Counted from the stretch's first letter, positions 11,144-63,024 are shown. The stretch is 64,000 nucleotides of DNA from a virus (IMGVR_UViG_3300036907_000061:4627-68626), one strand, 5' to 3'. Translations and numbers: made by a program. Notes: a model not told the origin generated them from the sequence alone.

Positions 11144-13878
11144 GGCATCCTCCGTCCGAATGGCACCCACCAGAATATCGGCGCCGTGTTCGTGTAAAGG
11201 CTGAGGGTTGCGGTGACGGGAATTCCTGCCACTTGTCCCGGCGATTGAAGGAAAAATCCCAAGTCGCCCGCAATCCCAGGATAGGTGAATGTCACCGCTA
11301 TGTCCCACGCAAAGTATTCCAGGCCCGAAGAAAGGTCATGTGCCGAAAAGTCATTAGTGCCAAAAGTGAGCGTGTATGTCGTGCCGAGTTGGATAATGGT
11401 AGCATCTGGATTATTTCCATCCCCGCTTCTGAGGTAATATCGTCCCGCTGCATCATACACTGCTCCACTCGGTATCAGCGGTGCGTTTGTCCCGGCTGGC
11501 GCATTGGTTCCCGCCGGAGCCGTGTAAGATGTTCCGCCGCCTTTAAGTGCCAATTCTGACACTTCTGTCGCTGGCAGGGCGCGGTTGTAAATACGAACAT
11601 CGTCCAAACCCCCCTTGAGCCATCCGGCATTAGGGAAGATGTCCGTTGGCACGTCCCATTGATATGTCCCTTGATGCATCTCTGCTCCGATGCACATCCA
11701 AGGAACATAAGGGTTGCCAGAAACTCTCAACCAAGGAGCATTAAGTGCATTAGTGCTGATGGGCTGGCCGTTTTGATAGGCGACAATTGTGTTGCTGGCC
11801 GCGTTCCAAACAACCGCCAAGTGCCACCAGTTGCTTCCGTCACGCGGCTGGTTAAAATGAAGGCAAAGACTCGGATTGTCCGAGTTATTCGTCACGGTAT
11901 TCCCATAAATGACAAAGCATGGGCCAAACGGAGTTGTGTTCGTTTCCAAACTTCCGGTCATGGTCGGAGTCGGCTCGCCATAGGCCAGTGTCCAAGAATT
12001 TGTCGAGGCAGATGGCGTGTAGGAGTACGCCGGATTGTAACCGCAATCTAAGATGGTGTCGTGCCGCTCGGTATTGGTTGCCCACAAAACCCAACAGGCA
12101 ACTGTGCCGTTCGTGATGAACTGAATCTGATTCAAATTCGTGATGGCAGCGTACTGCGTCTGCGCGTGCGGCCCAGTACCATCCGTATAATTCGTGCCCG
12201 ACACATACCACCAGCCAGCCTGTCCATCCGGCCCGGTGGATGCAATTATCCAGTTCGTGCCGAAATTCAGTCCGGTGTGACCATAGCCCGTCACGTCCGC
12301 CAACTGATTTGACGACACAAAATTCTCGTTGAAGTCAAAATGAACCAACAGGTTCGGGTCGAACTCGAAACAGCCGATGTCGTATCCTGCCCCCAATGAC
12401 CTTGCTGTTCCCTCAATATCCGACGAATTGTAAGCCGACACATTTGTGCCAGTGTCAATCAGCGGACTGCCGTAAAGGGGCCGGAAATCACCGGCAAACA
12501 CAGCGTAGGATAACGCCGCCAGCTTGGGGTCGGTGCCGGGATTGATGTCAGCAGGTAGTATCCACTGATCTGGGTCAGTAGCATCGCCAACGTATTCAAT
12601 TATAGAGGTTGTTTTTGGCGACCAGTTCGTCCCATCCCAGTTCACGACGTAGTTGGAGACTAAAGTAAGATTCCAGTTGTTAGTCGGGGCGCCATGTGGA
12701 CAAGCAAATGTAACAAAACCCCCATTCGTGTTGCGTCCGCAGCCAATAAAAGCACAGTTGGCGACGACACCATTGCTTGCCGTTCCCCAATAGTCTGAAA
12801 GGTCATTGGTGGAATGAGATACGAAGTTGATTACTTCTCCGGAGGCGTTCTGATTTGTGGCACAAAAAATATAGGTATTATTGATTGCTTGAAAACCTGC
12901 AATACCCATTGACCCATTACCACCATTCGTCACCCCGCAACGCACAAACAGGTTGTTCCGTTCGGTGAAATTACGCACGGGGTCGGAGGCTACGGAACCA
13001 CTTACCATTTGGCCAAAGTCTATTAAGCAGTCCCAAAACTGATTGTCCTCAGCAAAATTATCGTGTGTAATAAACCAAGGATTGGAAAGGCTGATTGGAT
13101 CCGCCGTCATCTGTCCGTAACACTGAAACATGTCAGGATGCTCACCGCCCGGCACATTCTGCATGTTCGTTATGTAATTACCACGGAAAGTATTGTAAGC
13201 ACCAAAGAACTGAAAAGCGTCACAGGACATCAAGTTATAGAGGCGGTTGTTTACAATCAAGTTGGTTGTGCCGCCAACGCGGATACATTGAGCCGCGTAC
13301 ATATTCGTGATTACATTATTGCTGATAATGCAACTGTTGGCGCAGGCATCTAGGGATACATTTGTGTTTGCATCAATTCCGCTCTGACTATAGTTCCACC
13401 TTACCACCCAACACTCGCCAGCATTCGAGAAATCACGAAAGACGCAATCGTGGACAAACAAATGGCTCGCCTGTGGCCCTATGTTAATTGCCGCAATTGA
13501 CATCCCACCATTAAAGATGTTAGAGAACGTCATGCTGACGAATACTGTGTTGCTACCAACCACGTCAATGCCACCAGCGACATTGACCGCCCCCGGCATA
13601 CCCTGAATGGTAATCGGCGCGCTTGGAGTGCCGGAATTGGGCGATGTGATGACGCTCCCATTCGCGGTTTCATCATTGTAGTAAATGCCCGGCTGTTGAA
13701 TGAGTGTGTCGCCAGCCGAAAGTTGGGGCAATGCGTGAAGCAGCGTAGTCCAAGGCTGCGCCAGTGTGCCAGAATTGGTGTCGGAGCCGGTGGGCGAAAC
13801 GTAATAAGTCGCGCCGAAGCAGGCCGTCGCCAAGAGCAGCAGCAACAGGAACAGGATAATGGATAGGGTGCGGGTCAT
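11140..13878 (-). CDS. Secreted-type beta-helix (pectin lyase-like) + choice-of-anchor-Q-like + LamG domain protein
   Basis: Signal peptide; ATYYVSPTGSDTNSGTLAQPW start of a beta-helix; DFRPLYGSPLIDTG...YDIGCFEF; WWHLAVVW...AYQNG...LDDVRIYNRAL LamG motif. Confidence 0.8.
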   Translation of the reverse strand: MTRTLSIILFLLLLLLATACFGATYYVSPTGSDTNSGTLAQPWTTLLHALPQLSAGDTLIQQPGIYYNDETANGSVITSPNSGTPSAPITIQGMPGAVNVAGGIDVVGSNTVFVSMTFSNIFNGGMSIAAINIGPQASHLFVHDCVFRDFSNAGECWVVRWNYSQSGIDANTNVSLDACANSCIISNNVITNMYAAQCIRVGGTTNLIVNNRLYNLMSCDAFQFFGAYNTFRGNYITNMQNVPGGEHPDMFQCYGQMTADPISLSNPWFITHDNFAEDNQFWDCLIDFGQMVSGSVASDPVRNFTERNNLFVRCGVTNGGNGSMGIAGFQAINNTYIFCATNQNASGEVINFVSHSTNDLSDYWGTASNGVVANCAFIGCGRNTNGGFVTFACPHGAPTNNWNLTLVSNYVVNWDGTNWSPKTTSIIEYVGDATDPDQWILPADINPGTDPKLAALSYAVFAGDFRPLYGSPLIDTGTNVSAYNSSDIEGTARSLGAGYDIGCFEFDPNLLVHFDFNENFVSSNQLADVTGYGHTGLNFGTNWIIASTGPDGQAGWWYVSGTNYTDGTGPHAQTQYAAITNLNQIQFITNGTVACWVLWATNTERHDTILDCGYNPAYSYTPSASTNSWTLAYGEPTPTMTGSLETNTTPFGPCFVIYGNTVTNNSDNPSLCLHFNQPRDGSNWWHLAVVWNAASNTIVAYQNGQPISTNALNAPWLRVSGNPYVPWMCIGAEMHQGTYQWDVPTDIFPNAGWLKGGLDDVRIYNRALPATEVSELALKGGGTSYTAPAGTNAPAGTNAPLIPSGAVYDAAGRYYLRSGDGNNPDATIIQLGTTYTLTFGTNDFSAHDLSSGLEYFAWDIAVTFTYPGIAGDLGFFLQSPGQVAGIPVTATLSLYTNTAPIFWWVPFGRRMP

Positions 13879-35794: not shown

Positions 35795-36133
35795 ATGAAA
35801 CTGAGCTATAACCCAAAGCTGGTCGTCTCGTATCTTGCCGAGCATGGAATTCCCACTCCCATATTTGAACACCGATTCGCAGAATGCATAGGACGACGCT
35901 GGAGATTCGACCTTGCATGGGAATTATCTCCCACCCAAAAACTGGCCCTGGAAGTGCAGGGGGGATTGTTCATACCCAAAGGCAGGCATGTTTTCGGAGC
36001 CTCGCTGATCAAGGAGCACGAAAAGCTCAACACCGCAGCCGCCATGGGTTGGAGGGTGCTGTTCTGCCAGCCTAAAGATTTGCTGACCCAACCAACAATC
36101 ATATTCATTAAAAAATCACTCGGATTACCATGA
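35795..36133 (+). CDS. PD-(D/E)XK endonuclease (resolvase/Vsr-like)
   Basis: EHRF...RRWRFDLAW...LALEVQGG...EKLNTAAAMGWRVL. Confidence 0.8.
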   Translation: MKLSYNPKLVVSYLAEHGIPTPIFEHRFAECIGRRWRFDLAWELSPTQKLALEVQGGLFIPKGRHVFGASLIKEHEKLNTAAAMGWRVLFCQPKDLLTQPTIIFIKKSLGLP

Positions 36134-36414
36134 TAACAGTAAACATTGAAACCGGAAAGATAAATAAAGAATTCCTGGTCAAAGGCAAGAATGGAAAAAC
36201 GTATCTCGATGTGGTGCTGTTTGAGACTCCCGATTCCGAATATGGCAATGACTACGTGGCGGTTCAGGGAGTAACCAAGGAACAGCGAAACGAAGGGAAA
36301 AAGGGACCCATCATTGGAAATGCGAAGATATATCAATCTCGCAAGGAAGACGCTCGGGTTGACAAGGCGAAAGAACCATCACCCGCACCAGATGACTCGG
36401 AAGTACCATTTTGA
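36130..36414 (+). CDS. Single-stranded DNA-binding protein (small type)
   Basis: GKNGKTYLD...YGND...PIIGNAK and acidic DDSEVPF tail. Confidence 0.7.
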   Translation: MITVNIETGKINKEFLVKGKNGKTYLDVVLFETPDSEYGNDYVAVQGVTKEQRNEGKKGPIIGNAKIYQSRKEDARVDKAKEPSPAPDDSEVPF

Positions 36415-36609
36415 TTTATGAGAACAAATGTAGGATTTAATGATTCACCTTTCCAGAAATGGAATTCAATGTCAGAATCTGGAGACCCGTTCAAGCCATG
36501 GAATAACCCGTTTGGCTCTGACGGAAGAGAATACCAAAAGTGGTGCGATCAACACCATATTCCAAGTCGAGAAAGATAAACCATACCAACAATACCCACC
36601 AAGCCCAAT

Positions 36610-36879
36610 ATGAGAGAAATAACAATTAAACCAGTACTTAATGGCTATATCGTAACAGTAGGATGTCAGAAGGTTGTATTTGACTGCAAGGACTGTCTGC
36701 TTCAAAAACTTTCGGAATACCTTGACCACCCAGAAGCGGTGGAACAAGAATTCTTAAAAGACGCGCTCAATCCAATGCCAGTCATGCCAGCGCCAGAACC
36801 GCCTTGCCTTCCAGTAGGATATGGGGGTTTGGACTCCTCTCGCCCCATGTCCGATATTTCGACTTCCCGACCACGATAA
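36610..36879 (+). CDS. Hypothetical protein
   Basis: ITIKPVLNGYIVTVGCQKVVF is a recurrent phage motif. Confidence 0.55.
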   Translation: MREITIKPVLNGYIVTVGCQKVVFDCKDCLLQKLSEYLDHPEAVEQEFLKDALNPMPVMPAPEPPCLPVGYGGLDSSRPMSDISTSRPR

Positions 36880-36882
36880 TTT

Positions 36883-37905
36883 ATGAAACAAGGATTAGTA
36901 CCGATTGAAGTTGAGGTGTTGCCGGTATCGGTTGCCGGAACGCTTGAGCGGGCGGAGATAGATGTTCAGATCGCCACCGCAAGGGCATACCCGCGTTCTC
37001 TGGAACAGTTTCAAAAGCGGGCGTTGAGCATGGCCACTTTGGATGAGGAAACCGCCGAGTCGTGCATCTATCAACGGCCCGTGGGAGATGGAAAGATTGC
37101 CGAGGGCGCGTCCATTCGACTCGCTGAAATTGTCGCTGCATCATACGGAAATCTTAGGGTTGCGTCCCGGCTGATCGAACAGACCGAGCGGTTCGTAAAG
37201 TGCGAGGGGGTTGCGATTGATTTGGAATCCAATTACGCCGGTAAGAGCGAGGTCATCGAGCCAACCGTCACCAAGGAAGGCAGGCCTTACTCTGAACGGC
37301 AGCGGGCCGTGGTCGCCAAGGCCGCACTGGCCAAGGCTTATCGTGACGCCACCTTCAAGGTCATACCCCGGTCGGTGTGCAAGTCCATCATTGACGCCGC
37401 CAAGAAAGTGGCCGCCGGAGACGAGAAGACCATCGACAGCCGCAAGAAGCGGGCACAGGACTGGCTGAAACTCATCAAGGTTGATGATTCAAGGGCATTT
37501 CGCGCCCTGGGAGTGCAAGGCTGGTCGGATGTTGGAGTGTCGCATCTTCTGGTGATTACCGGGCTCAGAACCGCTATCAACGATGGGGACACCACGGTTG
37601 ATGAGGCGTTTCCGGGATTGTCCATCAAGCAGGCGAATACGGGTGCGGCACCAAAGACCTTCACGGTTGGAAGTGGTGAAGTTCCGGAAACTCCCAAGAA
37701 GGTTGTGCCCGAGAACCTGATCCTGCTTCGCAAGAACATGGTCGCGTCAAACATCGAAGAGAAACCGCTGCTGGAGTTGGGGCGAGCCACCGGAATGTTT
37801 GACGAGTCATTGAACAGTCTTGAGGAAGTGTCAGAAATGCAACCCAAGGCGATTGATGCCGCAAACTCCGGATGGAAGTCCATTCTCAAAACCTTAAAGA
37901 AATAA
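36883..37905 (+). CDS. Putative single-strand annealing / recombination protein
   Basis: RAEIDVQIATARAYPRS...GASIRLAE; lies between the SSB and the exonuclease. Confidence 0.6.
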   Translation: MKQGLVPIEVEVLPVSVAGTLERAEIDVQIATARAYPRSLEQFQKRALSMATLDEETAESCIYQRPVGDGKIAEGASIRLAEIVAASYGNLRVASRLIEQTERFVKCEGVAIDLESNYAGKSEVIEPTVTKEGRPYSERQRAVVAKAALAKAYRDATFKVIPRSVCKSIIDAAKKVAAGDEKTIDSRKKRAQDWLKLIKVDDSRAFRALGVQGWSDVGVSHLLVITGLRTAINDGDTTVDEAFPGLSIKQANTGAAPKTFTVGSGEVPETPKKVVPENLILLRKNMVASNIEEKPLLELGRATGMFDESLNSLEEVSEMQPKAIDAANSGWKSILKTLKK

Positions 37906-37906
37906 C

Positions 37907-38098
37907 ATGCTGGACTTTTTCTTTCAACCACACGACCAGTCGTACCATGTATTCCGTGGCCCCGACAAGCTGGGAACCATATTTCATGGACAGGACAAGT
38001 TCTTCCACTTCCTGCCTTCCGTTCAGCCGCAGCCGTTGAGCATGCTGATGATGGATGAAATAGCCGTCAAACTTGAAAGATTGAATAACTCAAAATGA
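37907..38098 (+). CDS. Hypothetical protein
   Basis: Short ORF packed in the operon. Confidence 0.45.
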   Translation: MLDFFFQPHDQSYHVFRGPDKLGTIFHGQDKFFHFLPSVQPQPLSMLMMDEIAVKLERLNNSK

Positions 38099-39195
38099 AA
38101 AAAGACGCACGAAAGGGACTTCCTAGCGCAAGTTCCATGTCCCGATTGGAACACTGTCCCGGGTCTAACAACCTCATCAAACAGGTTGAACCCACCAAGA
38201 TCAAGTCCCATAAAGAGTGGGCATCCTCTGGGGATAGGGTGCATAAATACCTTGCCAAGCCCAATGACAAGAACTTCAAACTTTTGAGTCCTGATGAATT
38301 ATCTGTGGCACAGTCCTGTCAAGAGCAGCGAAAGCTGATCATCGAACAGGTCATTGCTGGAGAGTTCGACAGCATTGCTGAACACCGCTACTGGTATGCC
38401 CTGGAACATCCGCAGAACTTTTCAGGACAGCCAGACGAAGTGATTGTCACCATGGATGGCAAGACGGCGTTAATCATTGATTACAAGTCACTTCCGGGAG
38501 ACGTGGAGAGCGCGGAGAACAATCTGCAATTGATGTCTCTGGTATGCCTGATTCATGTCAATTTTCCCACTGTGGAAGAATGCTTTGCCGCCATAATCCA
38601 ACCGCTGGTTTCGTCAAAACCCACCATTGCACATTATCGGCGCGAGGATATGGCGGCTGCTTTAACACGCATACTAAAAATAATTAAGGACTCACAAAAC
38701 CAGGAAGCCATACGCAACCCAGGCAACCACTGTCAGTATTGCGGGGCCAAAATCTCCTGCCCGCAGGCACACGGATTGGTGACAAATGCATCCCTGGTTC
38801 GCCGGGATGAGGTGGCGGTAATGACTCCGGATAGGTTGGTGATTCTGTTGAACGCCTGCAAAGCCGCCGAGTCCATCATCAAAGCGGTAAAGGAAAGAAG
38901 CAAGGAATTGCTAAAAGAGAATCCAGAATGTATTCCAGGATGGAAACTCGAACCCGGCGACAACGTTCGCTCCATCATCGACAACAAGAAGGCTTATCTT
39001 GCCTTGATGAACGCAGGAATGATTGACCTTGAAACCTTCATGGCCATTGTCAAAATACCGCTTGGAGAACTGGAGAACACTGTGGCCGCGCGCATCAAAG
39101 TCAAGAAGACTGAGGCCAAGGTAATGGTTAATGAGACTCTCGGCGCATTGATTGAAGTGAAACAAAAAGACTCGTCACTTGCTCAAGTAAAATGA
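38095..39195 (+). CDS. Cas4-like PD-(D/E)XK exonuclease (DUF2800-like)
   Basis: SASSMSRLEHCPGS, GDRVH, GQPD, IIDYK, NLQL, HCQYCGAKISC Fe-S cysteines. Confidence 0.85.
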   Translation: MKKDARKGLPSASSMSRLEHCPGSNNLIKQVEPTKIKSHKEWASSGDRVHKYLAKPNDKNFKLLSPDELSVAQSCQEQRKLIIEQVIAGEFDSIAEHRYWYALEHPQNFSGQPDEVIVTMDGKTALIIDYKSLPGDVESAENNLQLMSLVCLIHVNFPTVEECFAAIIQPLVSSKPTIAHYRREDMAAALTRILKIIKDSQNQEAIRNPGNHCQYCGAKISCPQAHGLVTNASLVRRDEVAVMTPDRLVILLNACKAAESIIKAVKERSKELLKENPECIPGWKLEPGDNVRSIIDNKKAYLALMNAGMIDLETFMAIVKIPLGELENTVAARIKVKKTEAKVMVNETLGALIEVKQKDSSLAQVK

Positions 39196-39418
39196 AGTTT
39201 CAAATTATCTATTGCGATCCTCCATGGATGGAGTCTGGAGGTGGGGCCATCAGGAGGGGCGCAGACCGACATTATCCGCTGATGAAAACTGGGGATATAG
39301 CAATCCTGCCAGTGCACAGGATTGCTGACACAAACTGTCATCTGTATATGTGGTCAACAAACAATCACCTTCCAGATGCATTGAAAGTCATGGAATCGTG
39401 GGGATTCAGATATGTAAC
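39192..39418 (+). pseudogene. MT-A70 family N6-adenine methyltransferase, 5' part (interrupted)
   Basis: IIYCDPPW...HYPLM...LYMW...WGFRYV, then the sequence switches into an attC site at TAAC 39415-39418. Confidence 0.9.
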
Positions 39419-39499
39419 ACTGAGGTCAGGCACGGCGGAGCCTGACGTTGGAATTAACCCGCAGCGCAACCCGCCGTTGCCTGCACCGATTGGTTAGAT
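39412..39499 (-). other. attC-like site 1
   Basis: Minus strand: ATCTAAC caatc GGTGCAGG caacggcgg...ccgccgtg CCTGACC tcagt GTTACAT = R'', spacer, L'' with an extra base, L', spacer, R'. Confidence 0.85.
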
Positions 39500-39767
39500 G
39501 CGTATGAACGAACAACAAAAAATAGAAGCTCTGCGAGCCGCGCTGGTAACGAAAAACTCCGCGCTCGAAAACTACGGACGGCACTTTGACTGGTGCTTCG
39601 TATCCAAAGTGACCAACGCCAATGGCAAACTGGGAATAATCACGAACGAAGCGGAAGCCTGCGACTGCGGCCTGATGCGAGAACGCGCAAGCCATCTAAA
39701 GGTGCTCGCCGACGCTGAAGCATCTAAACGATTTGTTAGCCCAAAATATTATGACAAAAACATATAA
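39498..39767 (+). CDS. Cassette 1 hypothetical protein (Zn-binding H..C / CDC)
   Basis: Bounded by gttagatgc (39493) and gcatctaa (39720). Confidence 0.6.
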   Translation: MRMNEQQKIEALRAALVTKNSALENYGRHFDWCFVSKVTNANGKLGIITNEAEACDCGLMRERASHLKVLADAEASKRFVSPKYYDKNI

Positions 39768-40056
39768 ACATGCAGAAATCATCGGGCCGTTTGTCGAGCC
39801 TGAATGGAGTTACGCGGTCATTGATGGCTACAAGGTGCCACATATCAGGCTGCGGCCACTCACGGGTGAGAACGACGGCAAAACTGAAATCCATATGGTG
39901 CGCGGCGGGCAGTGCTGGATAATAGACGACAGCGGAATAGACGTGATACTACACCTGCTGGCAACCGCGATGGCCGTGGCTGCGGGATACACCTGCCACG
40001 GAGAGCAGTCACAGCCAGCAAACCCGTTCAAAGTCCGAATGACATCTTTGGGCTAA
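39751..40056 (+). CDS. Cassette 2 hypothetical protein
   Basis: Bounded by the perfect inverted repeat gttagcccaaa (39735) / tttgggctaac (40047); the stop codon lies in the TAAC. Confidence 0.65.
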   Translation: MTKTYKHAEIIGPFVEPEWSYAVIDGYKVPHIRLRPLTGENDGKTEIHMVRGGQCWIIDDSGIDVILHLLATAMAVAAGYTCHGEQSQPANPFKVRMTSLG

Positions 40057-40125
40057 CAGTGAGTTCAGGCGTGCGGAACCTGAACCGTCCGAATAACTGG
40101 AAGGCGTATCCCGCATCGCCTGAAC
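40051..40125 (-). other. attC-like site 2, split (remainder at 39727-39741)
   Basis: ctaac agtga gttcaggcg tgcgg...ccgca t cgcctg aac; the missing aac-gattt-gttagccc arm lies at the other end of the cassette. Confidence 0.7.
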
Positions 40126-40177
40126 GTAGAACTGAGCGATGGCCGCGGTGGACATTCGCTCCAGTGATTTGTTAGCG
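40119..40177 (-). other. attC-like site 3
   Basis: Minus strand: CGCTAAC aaatc ACTGGAGC ... GCTCAGT tctac GTTCAGG. Confidence 0.85.
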
Positions 40178-40190
40178 GAATTTTTGATGA

Positions 40191-41084
40191 ATGAACTATT
40201 ACAACGAACACGACCCAAAGGCGGCTGCCTGGTTGCGCGAACTAATCCGCGCTGGCGAAATCCCGCCCGGTCATGTGGATGAAAGGGATATACAAAATGT
40301 CAAACCAACTGAACTTGCTGGATATACCCAATGCCACTTCTTCGCCGGAATCGGCGGGTGGCCACTCGCGCTGCGCCTCGCCGAATGGCCAGACACAGAA
40401 CCTGTCTGGACAGGCTCATGCCCATGTCAGCCGTTTAGCTGTGCTGGCGAAGGAATGGGAGAATCTGACGAAAGACACCTGTGGCCGGATTTCCGAAACC
40501 TCATCGGCAACAAAAAGCCTCCAGTCGTGTTTGGCGAGCAGGTTGCGAGCAAGTCTGGACTGCAATGGCTCGATGGAGTATGCGCTGACATGGAAAGAGC
40601 GGGCTACGCCATCGGGACGGCTGATCTGTGCGCTGCGGGCTTCGGGGCGCCGCACATCCGCCAGCGGCTCTACTTCGTCGCAGAGCGCGTTGGAGTCGCC
40701 CAGGGCGACTGCGACGAATCCCGACGGGACGACGCGCACGCGGCTCGACCAGCTTCCGCGGCAGGCGAATCTGGCGAGCTGGCGGACGCCGAATGCAACG
40801 GACGGCGATCATGGCGGACCAAACTCTCGGGACTCGGCGGGCGGATTGCACCTTTCGGGGCAGGCACTCCCGATGGGCACCCCGGCCCGACTAACGGCCA
40901 CTGGCGAGCTGCTGATTGGCTCCTCTGCCGGGATGGCAAGTGGCGGCCAGTTGAACCCGGCACATTCCCGCTGGCTCATGGGGTATCCGGTCGCGTGGGA
41001 CTCCTGCGGGGCTACGGCAATGCAATCGTGCCACAAGTTGCCGCGAAATTCATCCAAGCATGGTGCGAGTCCGTATTCCGCTAA
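40191..41084 (+). CDS. DNA cytosine-C5 methyltransferase, alpha polypeptide (cassette 3)
   Basis: FFAGIGG (I), SCPCQPFS (IV), GEQV (VI), RQRLY (VIII), GYGNAIV (X). Bounded by gttagcggaat (40171) / attccgctaac (41075). Confidence 0.9.
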   Translation: MNYYNEHDPKAAAWLRELIRAGEIPPGHVDERDIQNVKPTELAGYTQCHFFAGIGGWPLALRLAEWPDTEPVWTGSCPCQPFSCAGEGMGESDERHLWPDFRNLIGNKKPPVVFGEQVASKSGLQWLDGVCADMERAGYAIGTADLCAAGFGAPHIRQRLYFVAERVGVAQGDCDESRRDDAHAARPASAAGESGELADAECNGRRSWRTKLSGLGGRIAPFGAGTPDGHPGPTNGHWRAADWLLCRDGKWRPVEPGTFPLAHGVSGRVGLLRGYGNAIVPQVAAKFIQAWCESVFR

Positions 41085-41133
41085 CCAAGATTACTTGGAT
41101 GAAGGACAGAATGGGAATCGGACAGTATTTTAG
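40297..41133 (+). CDS. Overlapping +1-frame C5 methyltransferase beta polypeptide (motif IX)
   Basis: Long open alternate frame with WRTPNATD and LNPAHSRWLMGYP (motif IX, absent from the main frame); aaggga SD-like sequence upstream of the ATG. Confidence 0.7.
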   Translation: MSNQLNLLDIPNATSSPESAGGHSRCASPNGQTQNLSGQAHAHVSRLAVLAKEWENLTKDTCGRISETSSATKSLQSCLASRLRASLDCNGSMEYALTWKERATPSGRLICALRASGRRTSASGSTSSQSALESPRATATNPDGTTRTRLDQLPRQANLASWRTPNATDGDHGGPNSRDSAGGLHLSGQALPMGTPARLTATGELLIGSSAGMASGGQLNPAHSRWLMGYPVAWDSCGATAMQSCHKLPRNSSKHGASPYSANQDYLDEGQNGNRTVF

Positions 41134-41530
41134 AGGCATCACCGAAGACTGTCTATTTGGAGTAAGGGGCAATCTGCCATATCTTAACAAGAATGGAAAG
41201 AGGGCCCAAGGGATTACCGGGTTCACCGCCCCCAGAACGGAACACAGCGCAAAGCCTGTGGAAATGCGGGCAATGATTGAGCATGTATCTGGATCAGAAG
41301 ACAGAAAAATGCTTGAAATGTTCGCCCGAGAGCCGCACGAAGGATGGCATTGCATAGGAAACGAAATAAACGGAAACAGCATACTTGATGAAATTTTACA
41401 ATTAACCAGCCATGAAACACTTCCAGGAAATATCGGAGACCATCATTCGCAACTGCCGACGGGCATCCGGTCTGGCGAAGAGGGCGGTGGGAAAAAAGAG
41501 ACAGAAGCTCAACCGGACATCGTGCCTTGA
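41086..41530 (+). pseudogene. MT-A70 methyltransferase, 3' part
   Basis: TWMKDRMGIGQYFRGITEDCLFGVRG...EHSAKP...LEMFARE..GW..IGNE. Confidence 0.9.
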
Positions 41531-41612
41531 ACTTATAGAAGTTGCCCGGGCCATAAACTCATCCGCCCAATACCTGGAATGCGCCGCCACCGGACAATAC
41601 CTTGGAAACTAA
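41412..41612 (+). CDS. Hypothetical protein
   Basis: Short ORF overlapping the MT-A70 tail. Confidence 0.35.
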   Translation: MKHFQEISETIIRNCRRASGLAKRAVGKKRQKLNRTSCLELIEVARAINSSAQYLECAATGQYLGN

Positions 41613-41613
41613 A

Positions 41614-42126
41614 ATGAACGAAAAAATAGAAAGGCTGTTAAAAATTGTCGACGAGTTCCCCATCAGGGGACGAATAGACTACACCGACCAGTCCGACCTG
41701 CTGTTCTGCAACTCGGTGCTTGCCGCGATCAGGGATGCGGCACCTGCGATCCGTTTCGCATTCACCAGCCAAGCCCCGATTGTGGAAGCGCAAGTCGTGC
41801 CCAGCAGTTTTCCTCAAGCATTGCGACTAGAGGAACAAAGCATCCGCATCCAAGATTCGAGCCGGGGTATGCCGGATGTGCCCCCGGTGGCCGGGCCGGT
41901 CTACACCTCAGGAGCAGCGGGTCAAAAATCGGACACCGATAACAAACCCTCACCTTCCGAAACCAGTCCCGGCGTGTTAGCCGTGACAGCCTCGGAACCA
42001 TCAGAACAAAAGAAAACAGCAAAACGAAAATCTTCCAAACTGAAAACTCGGAAGAAGAAATCTTTATCACCCGCGCCCATTGCGCGTACCGAAGAGGTTT
42101 CAGTCCAAACCACAGCACAACCATAA
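41614..42126 (+). CDS. Hypothetical protein with basic disordered C-terminus
   Basis: ORF in the operon. Confidence 0.5.
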   Translation: MNEKIERLLKIVDEFPIRGRIDYTDQSDLLFCNSVLAAIRDAAPAIRFAFTSQAPIVEAQVVPSSFPQALRLEEQSIRIQDSSRGMPDVPPVAGPVYTSGAAGQKSDTDNKPSPSETSPGVLAVTASEPSEQKKTAKRKSSKLKTRKKKSLSPAPIARTEEVSVQTTAQP

Positions 42127-42136
42127 CATAGCACAT

Positions 42137-42646
42137 ATGGCAAAGAAAGTCAAATCCCCACAGTTAATCCCGGTGTTTCCGGAGTCGGTTACACAAATGA
42201 AGCTTCGTTTTTCAAAGGCATTGGAGCATGTCTTCAAACTTGACCAGCCTGCGGACGGAAAGGAATACAAGCCGGAAATGCCCGGACCCGTAAACGTGTT
42301 TGATTCTATGGGGTCAATCCGGTTCGTGGTACAGAAGATTTCCGCCAACGGTGCCCCTCCGGTATTGAACTTCACGTTCGGATGGGGGCCGGATGTAAAG
42401 CAGCCTCCGGTCAACCTGGAATGGTTCATTGTGGAATGCCACAGCCTGGCCTATGAACTATGCGGAAAGCTGCGGCCACTTTCCTGCGAACTGATCGGAA
42501 ACAACTTTCTGGCCATAAACTATTCAATCGAGGAAAACAATGACGCCCACAAGCACACTGGCACTGGTGAGGAATCTGTCGGAGGGAAGGCTGTCACAGG
42601 CCAGGCCGATAAAGTTCAAGACGGTAAAATTACTGCCCAAGACTGA
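42137..42646 (+). CDS. Hypothetical protein
   Basis: ORF in the operon. Confidence 0.5.
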   Translation: MAKKVKSPQLIPVFPESVTQMKLRFSKALEHVFKLDQPADGKEYKPEMPGPVNVFDSMGSIRFVVQKISANGAPPVLNFTFGWGPDVKQPPVNLEWFIVECHSLAYELCGKLRPLSCELIGNNFLAINYSIEENNDAHKHTGTGEESVGGKAVTGQADKVQDGKITAQD

Positions 42647-42761
42647 CAACATCAAACCCGAACTGGTGTATGTGTGCACAGAATGCGACTGGGGGCATCC
42701 GTTTAGCCCCAAGTTCTGCATGGAATGCGGAAATGACAGGTTCACCATGGAAATAATATGA
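42540..42761 (+). CDS. Small zinc-ribbon protein
   Basis: CTEC...CMEC; ATGA-type coupling to the next gene. Confidence 0.5.
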   Translation: MTPTSTLALVRNLSEGRLSQARPIKFKTVKLLPKTDNIKPELVYVCTECDWGHPFSPKFCMECGNDRFTMEII

Positions 42762-43561
42762 AAGAAATATCAATCGTAGGACTGGGAGACATTCACGCCG
42801 GAAGCAAATCCGCCATATGCGTTCCAGACATGGAACTATGCGGAGGGGGATACTTCCGGTACTCAGCAGCCCAGAAGGGCCTGTATGACGCATGGGCCGG
42901 TCTGGCCCGGGACTGGCAAAACCCAGACATCCTGATCGCCAATGGTGACTTGATTGAAGGTCAGGCACGCAAGGAATCGGGAGTGCCCTGCTGGTCGACC
43001 GACCTGGAGGATCAAATGCATTGTGCCGAGCTCTTAATCAACATGTTCCATCCCAAGCAATTATACATCATTAATGGCACTGGATATCATGTTGACGCCG
43101 GAGGAAAAAGCCTGGAAAACATTCTGGCGGAAAAGATGGGTGCGGTGAAGATTGGAACCGGTCGATCCGTCTCAGCCGAAGAGCTGTTCCTTAGAGTTGG
43201 CGGGTTCACGTTCCACGCCGCACATCATATTCAGGTGGGGACCGGATGGTATCGCACAACTCCGGTGTCCAGGGAATTGGTATTCGCCCTGCTGAACGAA
43301 TCACACAAGCACAAGGTTGACGTTATCCTAAGAAGCCATGTCCATTCGTTTGTTGGTGTGGAATTTACCAGACAACACGGATTCACGCTGCCATGTTGGC
43401 AATTACAGACCAGATACATGTATAAGAAGTCCGCACTGGGGATGGTGCCGGATATTGGTGCCATACGATTCAGAATCAACAATGGAGAATTAAAACTCGA
43501 CAAACGTTTCTTTAAGATACCCGAAGCGAGACCAACACTGTTCAAATATGAAGACCAATAA
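42758..43561 (+). CDS. Calcineurin-like metallophosphoesterase
   Basis: GDIH, NGDLIEG, GTGYH, HH and SHVH motifs. Confidence 0.85.
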   Translation: MKEISIVGLGDIHAGSKSAICVPDMELCGGGYFRYSAAQKGLYDAWAGLARDWQNPDILIANGDLIEGQARKESGVPCWSTDLEDQMHCAELLINMFHPKQLYIINGTGYHVDAGGKSLENILAEKMGAVKIGTGRSVSAEELFLRVGGFTFHAAHHIQVGTGWYRTTPVSRELVFALLNESHKHKVDVILRSHVHSFVGVEFTRQHGFTLPCWQLQTRYMYKKSALGMVPDIGAIRFRINNGELKLDKRFFKIPEARPTLFKYEDQ

Positions 43562-43799
43562 GACGAGTGAAAATACTCACTCAACTGAGTTAAATATCCC
43601 CAAGGAGTGGGCTGAGGCCCTGTCAAACGAGCGGCCCGAGGGATGTTTTACAATCACTGAATTGATGCAACTCATCCATCCCAGCATATCCCGATCCGCA
43701 ACCCATAGAAGGATTAAAAAATTGGTAACACTGAAAAGGGCCAGCGTGATATCTCAGGTATATCAAGGAACAATGACCCACTTTTACAAATTGAAATGA
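43548..43799 (+). CDS. Winged-HTH small protein
   Basis: FTITELMQL...SRSATHRRIKKLV. Confidence 0.55.
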   Translation: MKTNKTSENTHSTELNIPKEWAEALSNERPEGCFTITELMQLIHPSISRSATHRRIKKLVTLKRASVISQVYQGTMTHFYKLK

Positions 43800-43947
43800 A
43801 CTTGATCCGGCGCAAATTTGGACGGGTCGGAGTGGCCGTTTATTCCAGCCAGCCAACGCAACTGGAAGTTTCCGGTGCTCAACATTCAGCCCGCCAGCTT
43901 GACACCCGTATGCTGGCTTTGGCCCGGAGATGCGCCGGACATTGACT

Positions 43948-44733
43948 ATGAAAGAAATAAAATCACTATACCTGGCAGGTCCAATGAGGGGTTATGAATC
44001 CCTTAACTTTCCAGAGTTCCACCGTATGTCAAGGGAATTAAGAATACGTGGATACGAAGTATGGAGTCCGGCGGAAAACGATTTGTCCAACGGAGTTGAT
44101 CCTGAAAACCCAAAAACCACCGACCCTTCATTTGAAGACTGCATGGCGTTCGACCTTCCATTCGTGTGCAAGCTGGATGGAATTGCGGTATTGAAAGGAT
44201 GGGAGAAGTCTGCCGGTGCAACATTGGAAGTTTCTGTTGCCAGAAGCCTCGGCAAGCCGGTACTGGATGCTTACACCTGCGATCCAGTGGAGACTATTAG
44301 TAATGGAGGAAAACCTTCCAATCCCAAAGATGCGATTGGAAGCCACAAGATACCACTGCATTTATGGCCCGAAACAGCAACCATCATGGGCAGTCTTGGA
44401 ATGCTGGATGGAATGTTGAAGTACGGAAGGGCAAACTTTAGGGCCATTGGCATACGATACTCCATCTACATCGACGCCTTGAAACGACATGTAAACGCCC
44501 TGTTCGAGGGAGAAGACCTTGATCCTGACAGCGGACTTCCGCATGAGGCCCACGTTCTGGCATGCATGGCCATCATCATTGATGCAAAGGCGGCTGGTAA
44601 ATTGAACGATGACAGACAGGTCAATGGAGGATACAGGGGACTGATCAATTCCATGACACCACACGTCGAGAGGCTAAAAGAGCTTTACAAGGACCGCACC
44701 CCCCATCATTACACCATACAGGACAAGTTATGA
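43948..44733 (+). CDS. DUF4406-like (nucleoside deoxyribosyltransferase-like) + dATP/dGTP diphosphohydrolase-like fusion
   Basis: YLAGPMRG...NFPEF...GWEKSAGATLE in the N-terminal half; NPKDAIG..K.PL...G..KYGRANFR...DPDSGLPH.AH in the C-terminal half. Confidence 0.8.
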   Translation: MKEIKSLYLAGPMRGYESLNFPEFHRMSRELRIRGYEVWSPAENDLSNGVDPENPKTTDPSFEDCMAFDLPFVCKLDGIAVLKGWEKSAGATLEVSVARSLGKPVLDAYTCDPVETISNGGKPSNPKDAIGSHKIPLHLWPETATIMGSLGMLDGMLKYGRANFRAIGIRYSIYIDALKRHVNALFEGEDLDPDSGLPHEAHVLACMAIIIDAKAAGKLNDDRQVNGGYRGLINSMTPHVERLKELYKDRTPHHYTIQDKL

Positions 44734-60431: not shown

Positions 60432-60842
60432 ATGACAACCGCAACCAAAAACTCGAAGCGACAAACTCGGACGCCCAACGGCGGCGAAGAAACAACCATC
60501 TTCCTTGCTGCTCTTGCAGCAAAGCTCGAACTGCCAACCGATGTGACACTGCTGGCTTGCGGCATGCAGGGTCTGAGATACGGTATGGCAACTGTCGGTG
60601 AATGTGCAGACAAAATCATCAAAGACTATCTAAACGGCGCACTGGCCGAACGTCTAGCCGGTGGCGGCAACGGTGGAGCGCAAGACCGGCCCGAAAAGAA
60701 ATGGTGCGCGTGGTGTGGGGTGTGGGGCGACCACACAAGCGGCGGATGTGACGACCTCCACGATGTTTTACTGCATCGTCGAGCGGAAGCAGAAAAGCAG
60801 CCGAACGCGGGAACTGATCCGACGCCGACAAACAACAAATAA
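60432..60842 (+). CDS. Hypothetical protein (cassette-like, ends in an attC arm)
   Basis: C-terminal PNAGTDPT is read from the left attC arm; CAWC..GDH motif. Confidence 0.5.
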   Translation: MTTATKNSKRQTRTPNGGEETTIFLAALAAKLELPTDVTLLACGMQGLRYGMATVGECADKIIKDYLNGALAERLAGGGNGGAQDRPEKKWCAWCGVWGDHTSGGCDDLHDVLLHRRAEAEKQPNAGTDPTPTNNK

Positions 60843-60932
60843 ATATGAGAGAACGAAATCTGCCGTTGAACACAGAACTGCCGCATGAAAAACCGCAGGA
60901 CGAGGGGCTGTTAGGTCCGGCGACTTGTGAGG
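60800..60932 (-). other. Degenerate attC-like site 4
   Basis: gaac gcggga actgatccgacgcc ... ggctgttaggtccggc gactt gtga pairs on the top strand with G-T wobbles. Confidence 0.45.
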
Positions 60933-61168
60933 CGATTCCTCACGCTGATCTGCTGGACATGTTGAAAGGGGCCGCGTGGTATTCCGGCGGGCGTGAGTGC
61001 TACGGTGAGCATCAAGGATACAGTTTCGATGTGGACGAAGAAACATCTCTGCGCGACGTGCTCTACCGCGACGAGACTCTATACAAAACGCCAGAAGAAG
61101 CAATCGTCGCCCACTGGCACAGACACTATTCGCCGAACGACCGAACTCTGCCGCGTGCCGACAAATGA
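60845..61168 (+). CDS. Cassette hypothetical protein
   Basis: Starts inside site 4 and ends inside site 5. Confidence 0.55.
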   Translation: MRERNLPLNTELPHEKPQDEGLLGPATCEAIPHADLLDMLKGAAWYSGGRECYGEHQGYSFDVDEETSLRDVLYRDETLYKTPEEAIVAHWHRHYSPNDRTLPRADK

Positions 61169-61263
61169 CACTCGACGACCAAGCATGGAAGGAACATATC
61201 GCTATGCTCAAAGCATCTAAACTGGCGGCGCAAGGCACGTTGGCAGCAGTGAGCTTGTTAGCC
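61132..61263 (-). other. attC-like site 5
   Basis: gaac gaccga actctgcc gcgtgcc ... ggcacg t tggcag c agt gagctt gtta, with two extrahelical bases. Confidence 0.8.
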
Positions 61264-61422
61264 TGCCGCCGCTGCGGAAAAACACCATCAATGACATCAA
61301 ACGGTGGTATGTGGTATGCGACCTGTGAGCATCCAGCGTGTGACACAACCATCCACGCCGAAACGCTCGATGAGCTTGTCAAGTGGTGGAACATAATTCA
61401 AAACTCAACTGCGGCAGGCTAA
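61165..61422 (+). CDS. Cassette-borne Lar-like zinc-finger protein
   Basis: CRRCG...CEHPAC...VKWWN; core bounded by a perfect 13-bp inverted repeat, gttagcctgccgc / gcggcaggctaac. Confidence 0.65.
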   Translation: MTLDDQAWKEHIAMLKASKLAAQGTLAAVSLLACRRCGKTPSMTSNGGMWYATCEHPACDTTIHAETLDELVKWWNIIQNSTAAG

Positions 61423-61461
61423 CGCTCCGGGTGAGCCACCAGCGCGCGAAAACCAAAAACT

Positions 61462-62142: not shown

Positions 62143-63024
62143 ATGGCCAATACCAACGTAAAACTACAGCCCGAACTGGGGTCTCTGGCTATTGAATTCG
62201 ATAACGCACTGCTGCAAAGGTGCAAGTCCAGACACACCATAGCTGCTTACCATGCCGCAGTTCAGGGGTGGCTGTCATACCACCGACTGATAAAAGCTTC
62301 ACCTAGAAGCATTACAGAGGCACAGGTGGCATCCTGGATAAACAGGTCTGGAGGACAGAAGCTTGCAACCCGCAAGCTTTGGTTGGCTGCTATTACCGCT
62401 TTCTGTGAATACTTGCGTAATTGCGGTTACATACTGGGAAATCCTGCCAAGAATGTGTCAGTGGACTTCAATTCCCTTACCCACGAACAGAGGGAAACCA
62501 AGAAGAAGATTCCTTTCACCGACGAGGAAGTGGATCGTTTAATTAAATATTTCAAGGAACACAACGAGTTATTCTGGGAGTGGGCCGTTATTGTTGGACG
62601 GGATACCGGATTGAGGATATCGGATATATGCAATCTGGAGCATTCATGCTTCAACGATCCAGGAACAATATCAGTATGGCAGGAAAAGGTGAATACCCGG
62701 GTATCACTTCCAACCACCCCACGGATCGTCGAGATGATTCCAAGGCTGCCTGGCGATGGAAGGTTCATTTTCAACCACGAGCGCTCAATCGTCATCAATC
62801 CTTTTGAGAGAACCAGGCTAAGAAACTATTTTCACGAAGTCCTGCAAAAGATTGGAATCCACGGCAAGTCCTTCCACTGCCTTAGATACGCATTTCTGCA
62901 AAGCCACAACAATCAAGGGGAGAAGGAGGTGCTTGCCAGAAAGCTGGTGGACGCCATGACCTTGGAAGATATACGCCGACTGGCTGGGCATGGCAACTCT
63001 CACACCACAAAAGGATACCTATGA
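62143..63024 (+). CDS. Tyrosine recombinase/integrase (Xer-like, not IntI-type)
   Basis: TGLRISD (R), K, HCLR, LAGH, TTKGY catalytic residues; no IntI-specific insertion before HxxR. Confidence 0.9.
   Translation: MANTNVKLQPELGSLAIEFDNALLQRCKSRHTIAAYHAAVQGWLSYHRLIKASPRSITEAQVASWINRSGGQKLATRKLWLAAITAFCEYLRNCGYILGNPAKNVSVDFNSLTHEQRETKKKIPFTDEEVDRLIKYFKEHNELFWEWAVIVGRDTGLRISDICNLEHSCFNDPGTISVWQEKVNTRVSLPTTPRIVEMIPRLPGDGRFIFNHERSIVINPFERTRLRNYFHEVLQKIGIHGKSFHCLRYAFLQSHNNQGEKEVLARKLVDAMTLEDIRRLAGHGNSHTTKGYL

Follow-up and report, generated by a model that had tools for sequence, protein, structure and literature searches.

Clusters of attC sites lacking an integrase (CALINs) have been described in phage genomes without IntI, with a cargo that includes DNA methyltransferases, and five of the six phage attC sites assayed were recombined by IntI1 (Qi et al., 2023; PMC9892861). 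IntI has also been described to insert cassettes at double-stranded genomic sites of the attG type, with a minimal sequence of 5'-GWT-3'; such an insertion can disrupt genes, and a cassette lying behind a promoter is expressed (Loot et al., 10.1101/2022.09.11.507474). Both phage attC clusters and attG insertion are already published, whereas we did not find the antisense orientation described below in print: the words "antisense" and "opposite" are absent from the text of PMC9892861, whose supplementary tables may list orientations.

The window analyzed here is a 64-kb stretch of the genome of a peat phage. It contains a 1667-bp insert consisting of three integron-type cassettes, located inside an MT-A70 methyltransferase gene. 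The insert is like the CALINs in the text of Qi et al. (2023; PMC9892861) in being an attC array without IntI in a phage, with methyltransferase cargo. It goes beyond that text in having a base-resolved insertion point inside a phage gene, an attC family that could be traced to the integrons of specific metagenome-assembled genomes (MAGs), genes that are all antisense, and one circularly permuted cassette. The target, G/TTAC (the slash marks the crossover), fits the 5'-GWT-3' attG consensus as given by Loot et al. (10.1101/2022.09.11.507474), whose described experiment used the E. coli chromosome; here, the setting is a natural phage genome and three cassettes are involved. The features are as follows, with R1 denoting the attC covariance model defined below.

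39192..39418, plus strand: MT-A70 (m6A-type) methyltransferase, N-terminal part, ending with the target TAAC (Pfam PF05063)
39419..41085: insert, 1667 bp
39412..39499, minus strand: attC1 (model R1 29.2 bits, window-wide E 1.2e-4; fold)
39498..39767, plus strand: ORF1, 89 aa, function unassigned (no Pfam or PHROG match)
39720..39745: cassette 1/cassette 2 junction, GCATCTAAAC GATTT GTTAGCCCAAA (sequence; no hairpin in folding)
39751..40056, plus strand: ORF2, 101 aa, function unassigned (family of 31 proteins)
40047..40125, minus strand: remainder of attC2, namely L'', loop, L', spacer TCACT and R' GTTAGCCCAAA (permutation analysis)
40118..40176, minus strand: attC3, short, 59 nt by model match (model R1; boundary base 40125)
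40191..41084, plus strand: ORF3, C5-cytosine DNA methyltransferase, 297 aa (Pfam PF00145, E 3.9e-15)
41086..41530, plus strand: MT-A70 gene, C-terminal part (Pfam PF05063)
61132..61263, minus strand: attC site of this family, part of a smaller second array (model R1 19.4 bits, E 0.026)
62143..63024, plus strand: phage tyrosine recombinase, 293 aa (Pfam PF00589, PF02899)

Insertion into the MT-A70 gene

The insert is bracketed by copies of TAAC at 39415-39418 and 41082-41085 and, because TAAC is repeated, limits of 39418-41084 are equally valid. Coordinates and letters were found to be as claimed in the original prediction: removal of the 1667 bp, fusing 39192-39418 to 41086-41530, yields a single 223-aa MT-A70 frame with a stop. 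Left unjoined, the frame of the N-terminal piece enters the hairpin and ends there, at 39497, and the C-terminal piece can be read in frame from an ATG within cassette 3, at 41060 (ORF 41060-41530). The two pieces match positions 1-70 (E 6e-10) and 90-172 (E 4.5e-14) of the 172 positions of the PF05063 profile, so that the domain, instead of forming one polypeptide in the phage, is divided by the insert. A gene naturally split at this point would have spoken against the prediction, and this is contradicted by the homologues: 120 of the 120 full-length MT-A70 homologues among the matches listed are unsplit, with both halves in one protein; in 112 of these 120, exactly one junction codon lies between the pieces; and another viral locus, L001, is uninterrupted across the junction, reading WGFEYVTAITWMKDRMG. 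The best homologue is only 77% identical to the N-terminal piece. The empty-site allele of the phage itself was not found, in that four runs showed only the filled allele and no 39418-41086 joint. The insertion splits, and probably inactivates, the m6A-type methyltransferase.

On the minus strand, the target reads CTTG G/TTAC ATATC. GWT stands at the crossover, no target bases are lost, and the MT-A70 frame is exactly restored when the insert is removed. The GC content is 0.60-0.69 within the insert and 0.47 in the flanks. Contigs from other runs span 39418 (X2, X5) and 41085 (X2, X3), and because they bridge both junctions, these are not an assembly artefact. Other runs' contigs diverge at 40122/40123 and 40173/40175, with loose ends that coincide with predicted crossover points.

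attC sites and mobile cassette units

Model R1 was built from 12 attC sites of one bacterial integron only (MAG G004, whose IntI scores 391 bits), and is a family-specific surrogate rather than the published general attC model, with rough E-values. Searching both strands of the window (128 kb) with E up to 10 returned three matches, all on the minus strand: 39412-39499, 40118-40176 and 61132-61263. Two of the three lie in the insert. The expectation that its hairpins would score with an attC model was thus borne out with this surrogate for attC1 (29.2 bits) and attC3 (21.5 bits; E 0.0085 window-wide, 2e-4 locally), with one other match in the window. The scores of attC3 and of the 61132 site (E 0.026) are modest, and the latter reaches only 10.4 bits with the filters off. 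Across 55 other viral loci (295 kb), R1 gave four matches, three of them directly 5' of a methyltransferase gene.

attC1 consists of R'' ATCTAAC, spacer CAATC, a bulged L stem, spacer TCAGT and R' GTTACAT, of which TTACAT is supplied by the target gene. attC3 consists of R'' CGCTAAC, spacer AAATC, an L stem whose 5' arm has two extra bases, spacer TCTAC and R' GTTCAGG. The spacers are 5 nt on both sides in both sites. The boxes show the RYYYAAC/GTTRRRY core with conserved AAC and GTT, except that the fourth base of the attC3 R' is C, not R. In folding, TAAC was found to pair with GTTA, 4-5 bases stayed unpaired on either side, and the stem was bulged (z-scores -2.3 to -4.4). The result is an R stem, an unpaired spacer and an L stem whose L'' arm (5', top-strand) has extrahelical bases. 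It is a rule of attC anatomy, anchored here on the G004 arrays, that the extra base is carried by the L'' arm, and the phage sites agree with the bacterial consensus in the arm on which their extra bases fall (columns 17 and 21/24 of alignment A1).

The 114-nt spacer between ORF2 and ORF3 contains two sites, at 40047-40125 and 40118-40176. The proposal that hairpins with attC anatomy separate the genes held for the spacer boxes and bulged stems, but not for the ORF1/ORF2 interval, where only GATTT was found. This junction has no hairpin because cassette 2 is permuted and attC2 is split: the minus strand at 39720..39745 carries the attC2 R'' box and spacer, followed by G and the opening bases of cassette 1. 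The attC2 boxes are GGCTAAC...GTTAGCC, with the site's own R'' separated from the remainder by the cassette body, and its interior gives a weak match (5.9 bits) to R1 positions 22-85.

Read on the minus strand, the cassettes extend over 41084-40125, 40124-39729 and 39728-39418. On the attC top strand, the minus strand of the window, each cassette would run TT..., gene, R'', L'', loop, L', final G; hence each gene is surrounded by its own GTTAG/CTAAC pair, and the array begins without a hairpin and ends with one. Since a hairpin is present at the 39418 end and none at 41085, only insertion with the minus strand as top strand fits.

The three inverted pairs are TTTGTTAGCGGAAT / ATTCCGCTAACCAA (14 nt, 93% complementary), TGTTAGCCCAAA / TTTGGGCTAACA (12 nt, 100%) and ATTGGTTAGATGC / GCATCTAAACGAT (13 nt, 85%). 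Each cassette start can pair with the R'' of its own cassette but not with that of the neighbouring one, the own pairs measuring 11, 11 and 9 (imperfect) nt. The three matching gene-bounding pairs that had been predicted are thus present, although the first is imperfect, GCATCTAAAC having one extra A, and a one-base T/A discrepancy affects both this pair and the cassette 1/2 junction. GTTA...TAAC inverted pairs of at least 11 nt, 100-2500 nt apart, occur three times in the window; 300 shuffled sequences contained 0.14 on average and never more than 2. The third is a 13-nt pair at 61257/61423 that encloses a small gene, and the adjoining 61132..61263 site resembles one at 11690-11797 of another array-bearing locus (L005). 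Exact GATTKGTTAG occurs three times in the window, always within the insert, whereas with at most one mismatch it is at chance level (9 against 7.33 expected; at least 9 in 32 of 100 shuffles). Both copies of exact TAACASTGAGKTCAGG in the window are within the insert.

The cassettes move as units. Cassette 2 is a circular permutation of an intact cassette of equal length (396 bp) in a metagenome contig (L035): 392 of 396 nt align at 90.8% identity after rotation by 328 nt, whereas only 110 of 396 bases agree without rotation. The L035 cassette has different neighbours, and its copy of ORF2 is 95% identical; most of the 31 proteins of the ORF2 family are encoded by ordinary phage-like genes without attC. 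The start of cassette 3, the methyltransferase cassette, recurs behind another hairpin in a further locus (L081), and the attC1 hairpin recurs in L005, L035, G004 and G003, standing between different genes in L005 and L035. The rearranged alleles that the original prediction called for therefore exist. Judged from sequence, the permutation of cassette 2 is the footprint of a circular intermediate, a circle that would have been opened at GTT in the L'' box, not in the R' box. Unlike in the reactions described by Loot et al. (10.1101/2022.09.11.507474), the cassette circle itself seems to be the GTT-bearing partner here.

Source of the recombinase

As had been claimed, the phage was found to lack IntI: no TIGR02249 match was obtained in the whole 68.6-kb phage record, estimated to be 98% complete. 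The record thus shows no intI with attI beside the array, and the block is a CALIN, not an integron. The tyrosine recombinase at 62143-63024 was considered as IntI and rejected, with a BLASTP E of 0.28 against the G004 IntI and the IntI-specific segment missing. Its best NCBIfam score is 42.9 bits against a cut-off of 220, it matches the PHROG phrog_1 integrase (E 8e-25), and it is probably a lysogeny integrase.

Bacteria with the same attC family do have IntI. A 22-mer from hairpin 1 is present in two bacterial MAGs (G004 and G003), one labelled Verrucomicrobiae, and IntI in both exceeds the TIGR02249 cut-off of 265 bits (391 in G004; 375 and 279 in G003). The R1 family was found in 31 of 101 sampled genomes of the class of G003. 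Homogeneous attC families are typical of sedentary chromosomal integrons, the Vibrio repeats being the standard example, and those in MAGs G004, G003, G058, G026 and G040 have the same attC family as the phage. The family has GCCTAAC as R'', GCTGGAGCC or GGTGCAGGC plus extra bases as L'', and a length of about 60-130 nt. The G004 cassettes, with attC sites of about 108 nt and sense genes, are like those of the phage in that their first bases are complementary to their own R'', with inverted pairs of 11-13 nt. The bacterial integrons have IntI adjacent to the array, the gene facing away from it in G004, whereas the phage has none. The host assignment derives from the attC family, because the phage and the two MAGs have no other DNA in common; the host is probably a member of Verrucomicrobiae or a close relative from the peat habitat.

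It is therefore likely that integron cassettes entered the phage gene by attC × attG recombination, with a host IntI in trans as the most likely catalyst. A folded attC would recombine with the double-stranded secondary attG-type site G/TTAC on the minus strand within the MT-A70 gene, during infection or lysogeny. The action of an integron integrase from the bacterial host is suggested by the shared attC sites. The insert would deliver a C5-cytosine methyltransferase and two small genes, with all three following the phage's own transcription. This agrees with the original prediction of secondary-site insertion by a host IntI, which is supported by the unsplit homologues, the R1 scores, the rearranged alleles and the lack of a phage IntI.

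It is unlikely that the phage's own Xer-like tyrosine recombinase (62143-63024) moves the cassettes as part of a phage-encoded integron-like system. The second small array (61132-61447) does lie about 700 bp upstream of its gene, but the attC family is that of bacterial integrons with a genuine IntI, and the recombinase belongs to the general phage integrase family phrog_1 and lacks the IntI-specific segment. Moreover, only five homologues with 32-37% identity were found in 5.8 billion proteins, none of them in viral_contigs, and searches of the fragmentary L005 and L001 records did not recover the gene, although L005 has an array.

Still less probable is a block copied by homologous or illegitimate recombination with a phage or bacterial array, with TAAC as microhomology. 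Phage genomes are mosaic, a 4-bp repeat by itself is weak evidence of a specific site, and an off-target route at GTTRRRY-like motifs is raised in the text of Qi et al. (PMC9892861). Such an event would not account for both insert ends lying exactly at the R-box AA/C crossover, for the attC × attG polarity, with one end lacking a hairpin and the other having a hybrid R', or for an MT-A70 frame restored to the codon, and the permuted internal cassette needs a circle. The remaining candidates, namely another hairpin-guided single-strand element (IS200/IS605-like or non-autonomous), a self-splicing intron or an assembly chimera, are very improbable even taken together. Insertion after a tetranucleotide, subterminal hairpins and the lack of a target duplication beyond TAAC would suit such an element, but no transposase was seen in the insert, where the sole family match is the ORF3 methyltransferase, the right end has no hairpin, and attC model R1 matches. 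Against an intron, no Rfam family was found at 36000-44000 with E up to 1, bar one unrelated weak match; against a chimera, contigs of three other runs span the junctions.

Cassette orientation and a possible phage cassette pool

What distinguishes the phage cassettes from their bacterial relatives? A textbook cassette has a sense gene followed by attC. The phage cassettes are reversed, which needs its own explanation: ORF1-ORF3 are all on the plus strand, whereas every attC match falls on the minus strand. Genes are likewise antisense to attC in L005 and L035, whereas in bacterial arrays of the same attC family the longest frame is sense in 17 of 22 cassettes and antisense in none. The ORF1 ATG lies within an R box, its last 12 codons and stop lie within cassette 2, and the ORF3 stop falls in the CTAAC box. 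ORF3 matches PHROG phrog_363 over residues 1-291 (E 1.8e-78), shows about 70-75% nucleotide identity to the methyltransferase genes of many phages, and likely has an anti-restriction function.

The antisense orientation and the phage-type cargo look phage-specific. These features uphold part of the earlier proposal of a phage-specific cassette pool, although the attC family itself proved to be common to ordinary bacterial integrons. As a tentative suggestion, more doubtful than the insertion route itself, phages of Verrucomicrobiae-type hosts may keep their own pool of antisense-attC cassettes, made from phage genes and shuffled by host integrases. The cargo would be methyltransferases and small early genes, each preceded by an attC in antisense orientation, and host integrases would shuffle the cassettes among phage genomes and occasionally into the host integron. 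The reversed polarity would place the recombinogenic bottom strand on the phage sense (non-template) strand, where phage transcription or replication might expose it, making the cassettes unusually mobile. Cassette circles acting as GTT-bearing targets would then give rise to permuted cassettes.

Overall, the locus is a natural integron cassette block, resolved to the base, that lies within a peat phage gene and not in an integron, and joins laboratory attG insertion to phage attC clusters and to a group of candidate hosts for this uncultured phage. At the sequence level, the permuted cassette testifies to circular cassette intermediates in the environment, and suggests a reaction in which the cassette circle is the secondary-site partner. 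The contrast within one attC family, antisense in viral and metagenome contigs versus sense in bacterial arrays, suggests an orientation rule that would render phage-side cassette traffic recognizable and testable, and is relevant to the traffic of methyltransferases and other anti-restriction genes between phages.

The interrupted MT-A70 gene

The virus record is 68.6 kb in length and 98% complete by CheckV estimate, the window being part of it. The MT-A70 gene starts at 39192 and reads to ...WGFRYV, after which TAAC (39415-39418) is followed by foreign sequence, and the gene continues 3' of a second TAAC at 41082-41085. Joining 39192-39418 to 41086-41530 gives a single open frame of 223 aa, and the Pfam MT-A70 profile (172 positions) is matched over positions 1-70 by the N piece and 90-172 by the C piece. 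GC content was found to be 0.47 in the MT-A70 gene versus 0.60-0.69 in the insert. A total of 143 proteins longer than the 75-aa N piece were matched; the best 120 of the 143 range from 139 to 250 aa in length and from 51 to 77% in identity, contain both pieces on one chain in every case, and show a gap of exactly one residue, the junction codon, between the two pieces in 112 cases. In the viral relative L001, too, the MT-A70 gene is uninterrupted across the insertion point. Judged from these sequences, the MT-A70 gene is not naturally split, and the precise insertion proposed in the original prediction is supported by the restored frame, the unsplit homologues (best 120 of 143) and the contiguous L001 gene.

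Because contigs from other sequencing runs bridge both 39418 (runs X2 and X5) and 41085 (X2 and X3), the insert junctions are real. A near-identical full-length protein representing an empty-site allele was not found with the N piece, the best of the best 120 of 143 matches being 77% identical. A joint across the insert was absent from the four runs mapped to the region, to which little weight is attached as the coverage consists of short, low-depth contigs; the sole joint listed in these runs, from 40550 to 40623 inside ORF3, occurs in one X2 contig. An ATG at 41060 is a possible restart for the C part of the gene. Separately, the MT-A70 homologue of L001 (5740-6294) contains two in-frame TAG codons (...DIAA(TAG)PIQ... 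and ...LYI(TAG)TTNN...) in an otherwise conserved frame, and is either a pseudogene or a gene of a phage in which TAG is decoded as a residue.

attC hairpins and cassette layout

Features of the insert and attC covariance model (R1) sites in the window
39498-39767, plus strand, ORF1, no family match
39751-40056, plus strand, ORF2, no family match
40191-41084, plus strand, ORF3, C5-cytosine DNA methyltransferase (PF00145, E 3.9e-15; phrog_363, E 1.8e-78, residues 1-291)
39412-39499, minus strand, R1 site (attC1, hairpin 1), 29.2 bits, E 1.2e-4
40118-40176, minus strand, R1 site (attC3), 21.5 bits, E 0.0085
61132-61263, minus strand, R1 site, 19.4 bits, E 0.026
41084 to 40125, read on the minus strand, cassette 3, 960 nt
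40124 to 39729, read on the minus strand, cassette 2, 396 nt
39728 to 39418, read on the minus strand, cassette 1, 311 nt

The R1 covariance model was built only from 12 complete attC sites of the bacterial metagenome-assembled genome (MAG) G004, and is a family-specific surrogate for a general attC model; it was used in place of a crude home-made stem scanner that gave many false positives. In the G004 consensus fold, an unpaired spacer separates an R stem of 7-9 bp from an L stem whose 5' arm carries extra bases. R1 was observed to match three sites only in the window (both strands, E up to 10), all on the minus strand, and the two in the insert (29.2 and 21.5 bits) agree with the attC identity originally proposed for the hairpins. 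R1 sites are absent from L001 and from another viral locus, L004. Across 55 viral loci with ORF3 relatives (295 kb), four matches were found, 51 of the 55 having none at E up to 0.1, and the isolated phages L002 and L003 gave no match at E up to 1. In the class of a second MAG, G003, 31 of 101 sampled genomes contain matches. From the R1 matches and the occurrence of the same hairpin beside true integron integrase (IntI) genes, the hairpins are, at the sequence level, members of the attC family used by bacterial integrons with a true IntI.

The pattern CTAACNNNNCRSTGSAG was found at 16 sites in G004 and none in G003 (reversed control, 0 and 2), the G003 sites deviating from it at its letters. 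A degenerate hairpin 17-mer matched two loci in viral_contigs, of which that in L005 is genuine and that in L004 falls by chance within a structural gene, and the exact 28-mer of attC3 had no match there. No intron or other Rfam family was detected in 36000-44000, the sole match being a weak one to an unrelated sRNA at 42810. An IS200/IS605-like reading was rejected in view of the match to the attC model, the lack of a hairpin at the right end and the fact that no transposase was seen.

As originally proposed, each of the three genes is framed by its own matching GTTAG.../...CTAAC inverted pair (14 nt, 93% complementary; 12 nt, 100%; 13 nt, 85%). Inverted pairs of at least 11 nt number three in the window versus a shuffle mean of 0.14, and none of 300 shuffles gave three. 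In the folded hairpins the TAAC/GTTA ends are paired, 4-5 bases are unpaired and the stem is bulged. The accompanying proposal that hairpins separate the genes holds between ORF2 and ORF3 but not between ORF1 and ORF2, where there is none, and the ORF2-ORF3 spacer comprises two sites, a further difference from the first description. The MT-A70 N piece and ORF C of L005 have ...EVRHGGA-type tails, both stopping at TGA within hairpin 1. The attC hairpins also lend codons to phage-strand genes (window 39415-39497; L005 12183-12230; L007, a G003 IntI locus, 5937-6002), and start codons lie inside hairpin loops in L007 and L005.

Cassettes in an array are ordered TT..., gene, R'', L'', loop, L', G, and because of this order an inserted block has a hairpin-free start and a hairpin end followed by the target TT. 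Since the hairpin of the insert sits only at the 39418 end, with none at 41085, it must be the minus strand that serves as the attC top strand, and every R1 match is likewise on that strand. The minus-strand target reads CTTG G/TTAC ATATC, and its GTT conforms to 5'-GWT-3', the consensus that Loot et al. give for attG sites of the genome where IntI mediates insertion (bioRxiv 10.1101/2022.09.11.507474). As it stands in the window, the R' of attC1 (GTTACAT) is partly made of target sequence, the box truly matching attC1 R'' being at the start of cassette 1 itself. A start that matches its own R'' is expected of integron cassettes, and the bacterial cassettes of G004, with pairs of 11-13 nt, show the same start/R'' arrangement.

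As for gene content, the ORF3 DNA is 70-75% identical to methyltransferase genes of many phages. The ORF1 protein had no match in G003 or G004; ORF2 had no usable match in the ESM Atlas, and its AlphaFold2 model (alignment A3) had a mean pLDDT of 47.7, too poor for a fold search. A second plus-strand frame overlapping ORF3 (40273-41133) is open for 286 aa and has its own PHROG "DNA methyltransferase" matches (phrog_1008, E 4.4e-29; phrog_31772). Two overlapping CDS are annotated likewise in Xanthomonas phage PhiXhv-5, the second being 42% identical to this frame, which could reflect dual coding, a frameshifted gene or a high-GC effect. Outside the insert, a GC-rich island at 36883-37905 (0.56-0.58 versus about 0.46 around it) holds a 340-aa gene of unassigned function (phrog_3657, E 3e-34); as R1 has no match in it, the gene looks foreign but is not organized as a cassette.

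Integron integrases and the candidate host

A 22-mer of hairpin 1 was found in two MAGs, G003 (labelled uncultured Verrucomicrobiae) and G004 (labelled "bacterium"). With the curated TIGR02249 threshold (265 bits) as the IntI criterion, G004 contains one IntI (391 bits) and G003 two (375 and 279 bits); none of 14 control genomes reached the cut-off. In a canonical arrangement, the IntI gene of G004 faces away from an array of repeats of about 108 nt with small sense genes between them, one repeat being phage hairpin 1 on the opposite strand. In G003, about 370 nt separate hairpin 1 from an IntI reading frame downstream of it, and four R1-matching sites lie on the far side of the second IntI. 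The ...RKYPNAGKQWEWQWFFPS...RRRHH... segment of the G004 IntI (458-aa frame) is also conserved in the IntI of G003, but the phage recombinase lacks it; we take this segment to be the IntI-specific insertion, the IntI membership itself being based on the TIGR02249 score.

The integrases of the two MAGs are 65% identical over the core and each is much extended at its N terminus, the frames being 458 aa (L008, the G004 IntI locus, 1060-2436) and 545 aa (L007 6061/6371-7698) versus 315 positions in the family model. Just upstream of IntI in G003 (contig C27), L007 3471-5940 contains, between two attC sites, a 347-aa tyrosine recombinase, a methyltransferase-like frame and a frame stopping abruptly after ...LILPGE, presumably an IS91-type transposase. 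All of these frames are antisense to the array, and the segment looks like a second disruptive insertion beside IntI.

IntI is absent from the whole 68.6-kb phage record, as the original prediction had it for the insertion. The sole tyrosine recombinase of the phage (62143-63024) matches general integrase families; its best NCBIfam score was 42.9 bits versus a cut-off of 220, its comparison with the G004 IntI gave E 0.28, and it has five homologues only. Neither it nor the neighboring DUF2800 gene has relatives in viral_contigs. Because the record has no IntI and the phage recombinase is not IntI-like, the best-supported candidate catalyst of the insertion is an IntI that the host supplies in trans. 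The integrase gene suggests that the phage is temperate, and a prophage state would expose it to host IntI. The putative host assignment has the shared attC family as its sole basis, no other DNA shared with G003 or G004 having been found in the part of the window searched (48 kb, beyond position 16000).

A second small array was observed at 60800-61447, about 700 bp upstream of the phage recombinase. It contains a minus-strand attC site (61132-61263), whose hairpin is similar to the L005 site at 11690-11797, and a small gene bracketed by a 13-nt inverted pair (61257/61423).

Permutation, orientation and possible cassette traffic

In the viral contig L005, hairpin 1 belongs to an array of three cassettes carrying other genes. 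An alignment of ORF2 relatives matched 11 metagenome loci, of which only L035, a 2-kb contig with an ORF2 95% identical, has attC sites, its four sites and its genes being on opposite strands; the ten more distant loci (35-69% identity) have no R1 sites, and because of this the ORF2 gene family, as sampled by these sequences, is not always in cassette form. In the ORF2 cassette of L035, the type of attC that is split in the window is intact, and the neighbors are different. Both cassettes are 396 nt in length; a 328-nt rotation aligns 392 of the 396 nt at 90.8% identity, whereas the unrotated cassettes agree at 110 of 396 bases. Because only the rotated copy aligns, cassette 2 of the window is by alignment a circular permutation, and rearranged alleles, which the original prediction called for, thus exist. 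It follows that cassette 2 must have passed through a putative circle and re-entered via the GTT of the L'' box, not the R' box; a double-stranded circle acting as an attG-type partner of attC3 would be one possible route. The T count at the two cassette 2 junctions is off by one.

In L077, L081 and L107, which account for three of the four R1 matches in the 55 ORF3-relative loci, the attC site immediately precedes the methyltransferase start and is on the other strand. L081 shares the cassette 3 start letter for letter, with a longer hairpin and other upstream DNA. Single low-depth contigs of X2 and X5 diverge at the predicted crossovers (40122/40123, 40173/40175, and after ...ATTCCGCTAAC near 41059), and are taken as supporting evidence only.

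All three insert genes are antisense to their attC, as are the genes of L005 and L035.

Orientation of the longest open frame per cassette relative to attC of the same family (a crude criterion, not gene calls)
Five bacterial genomes: sense 17, antisense 0, unclear 5, total 22
L005 and L035: sense 0, antisense 3, unclear 2, total 5

The more distantly related homologues of ORF2 and ORF3 occur as ordinary phage genes and lack attC, which suggests that the insert cassettes were made from phage genes. The two integron-proximal units of G003 are also antisense, one holding a methyltransferase-like frame, and phage-bacterium cassette traffic may therefore be two-way.

Qi et al. described 17 phage attC clusters without IntI, the cargo of which includes methyltransferases, and showed that five of six phage attC sites tested are recombined by IntI1 (Qi et al., 2023; PMC9892861). 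Insertion by attC x attG recombination was likewise demonstrated by Loot et al. (bioRxiv 10.1101/2022.09.11.507474). Since attC arrays in phages and attG insertion are already known, the window case is a well-resolved new instance. No description was found in the literature, including the available text of Qi et al., of antisense cassettes as a phage rule, of a permuted cassette or of a link between phage cassettes and Verrucomicrobiae-type integrons; an antisense rule within one attC family was not found in print, and supplementary tables may bear on orientation. For the phage itself, a predicted m6A-type gene is split by the insert and a predicted C5 methyltransferase is acquired, and an altered methylation pattern, and hence altered restriction evasion, would be a plausible consequence.
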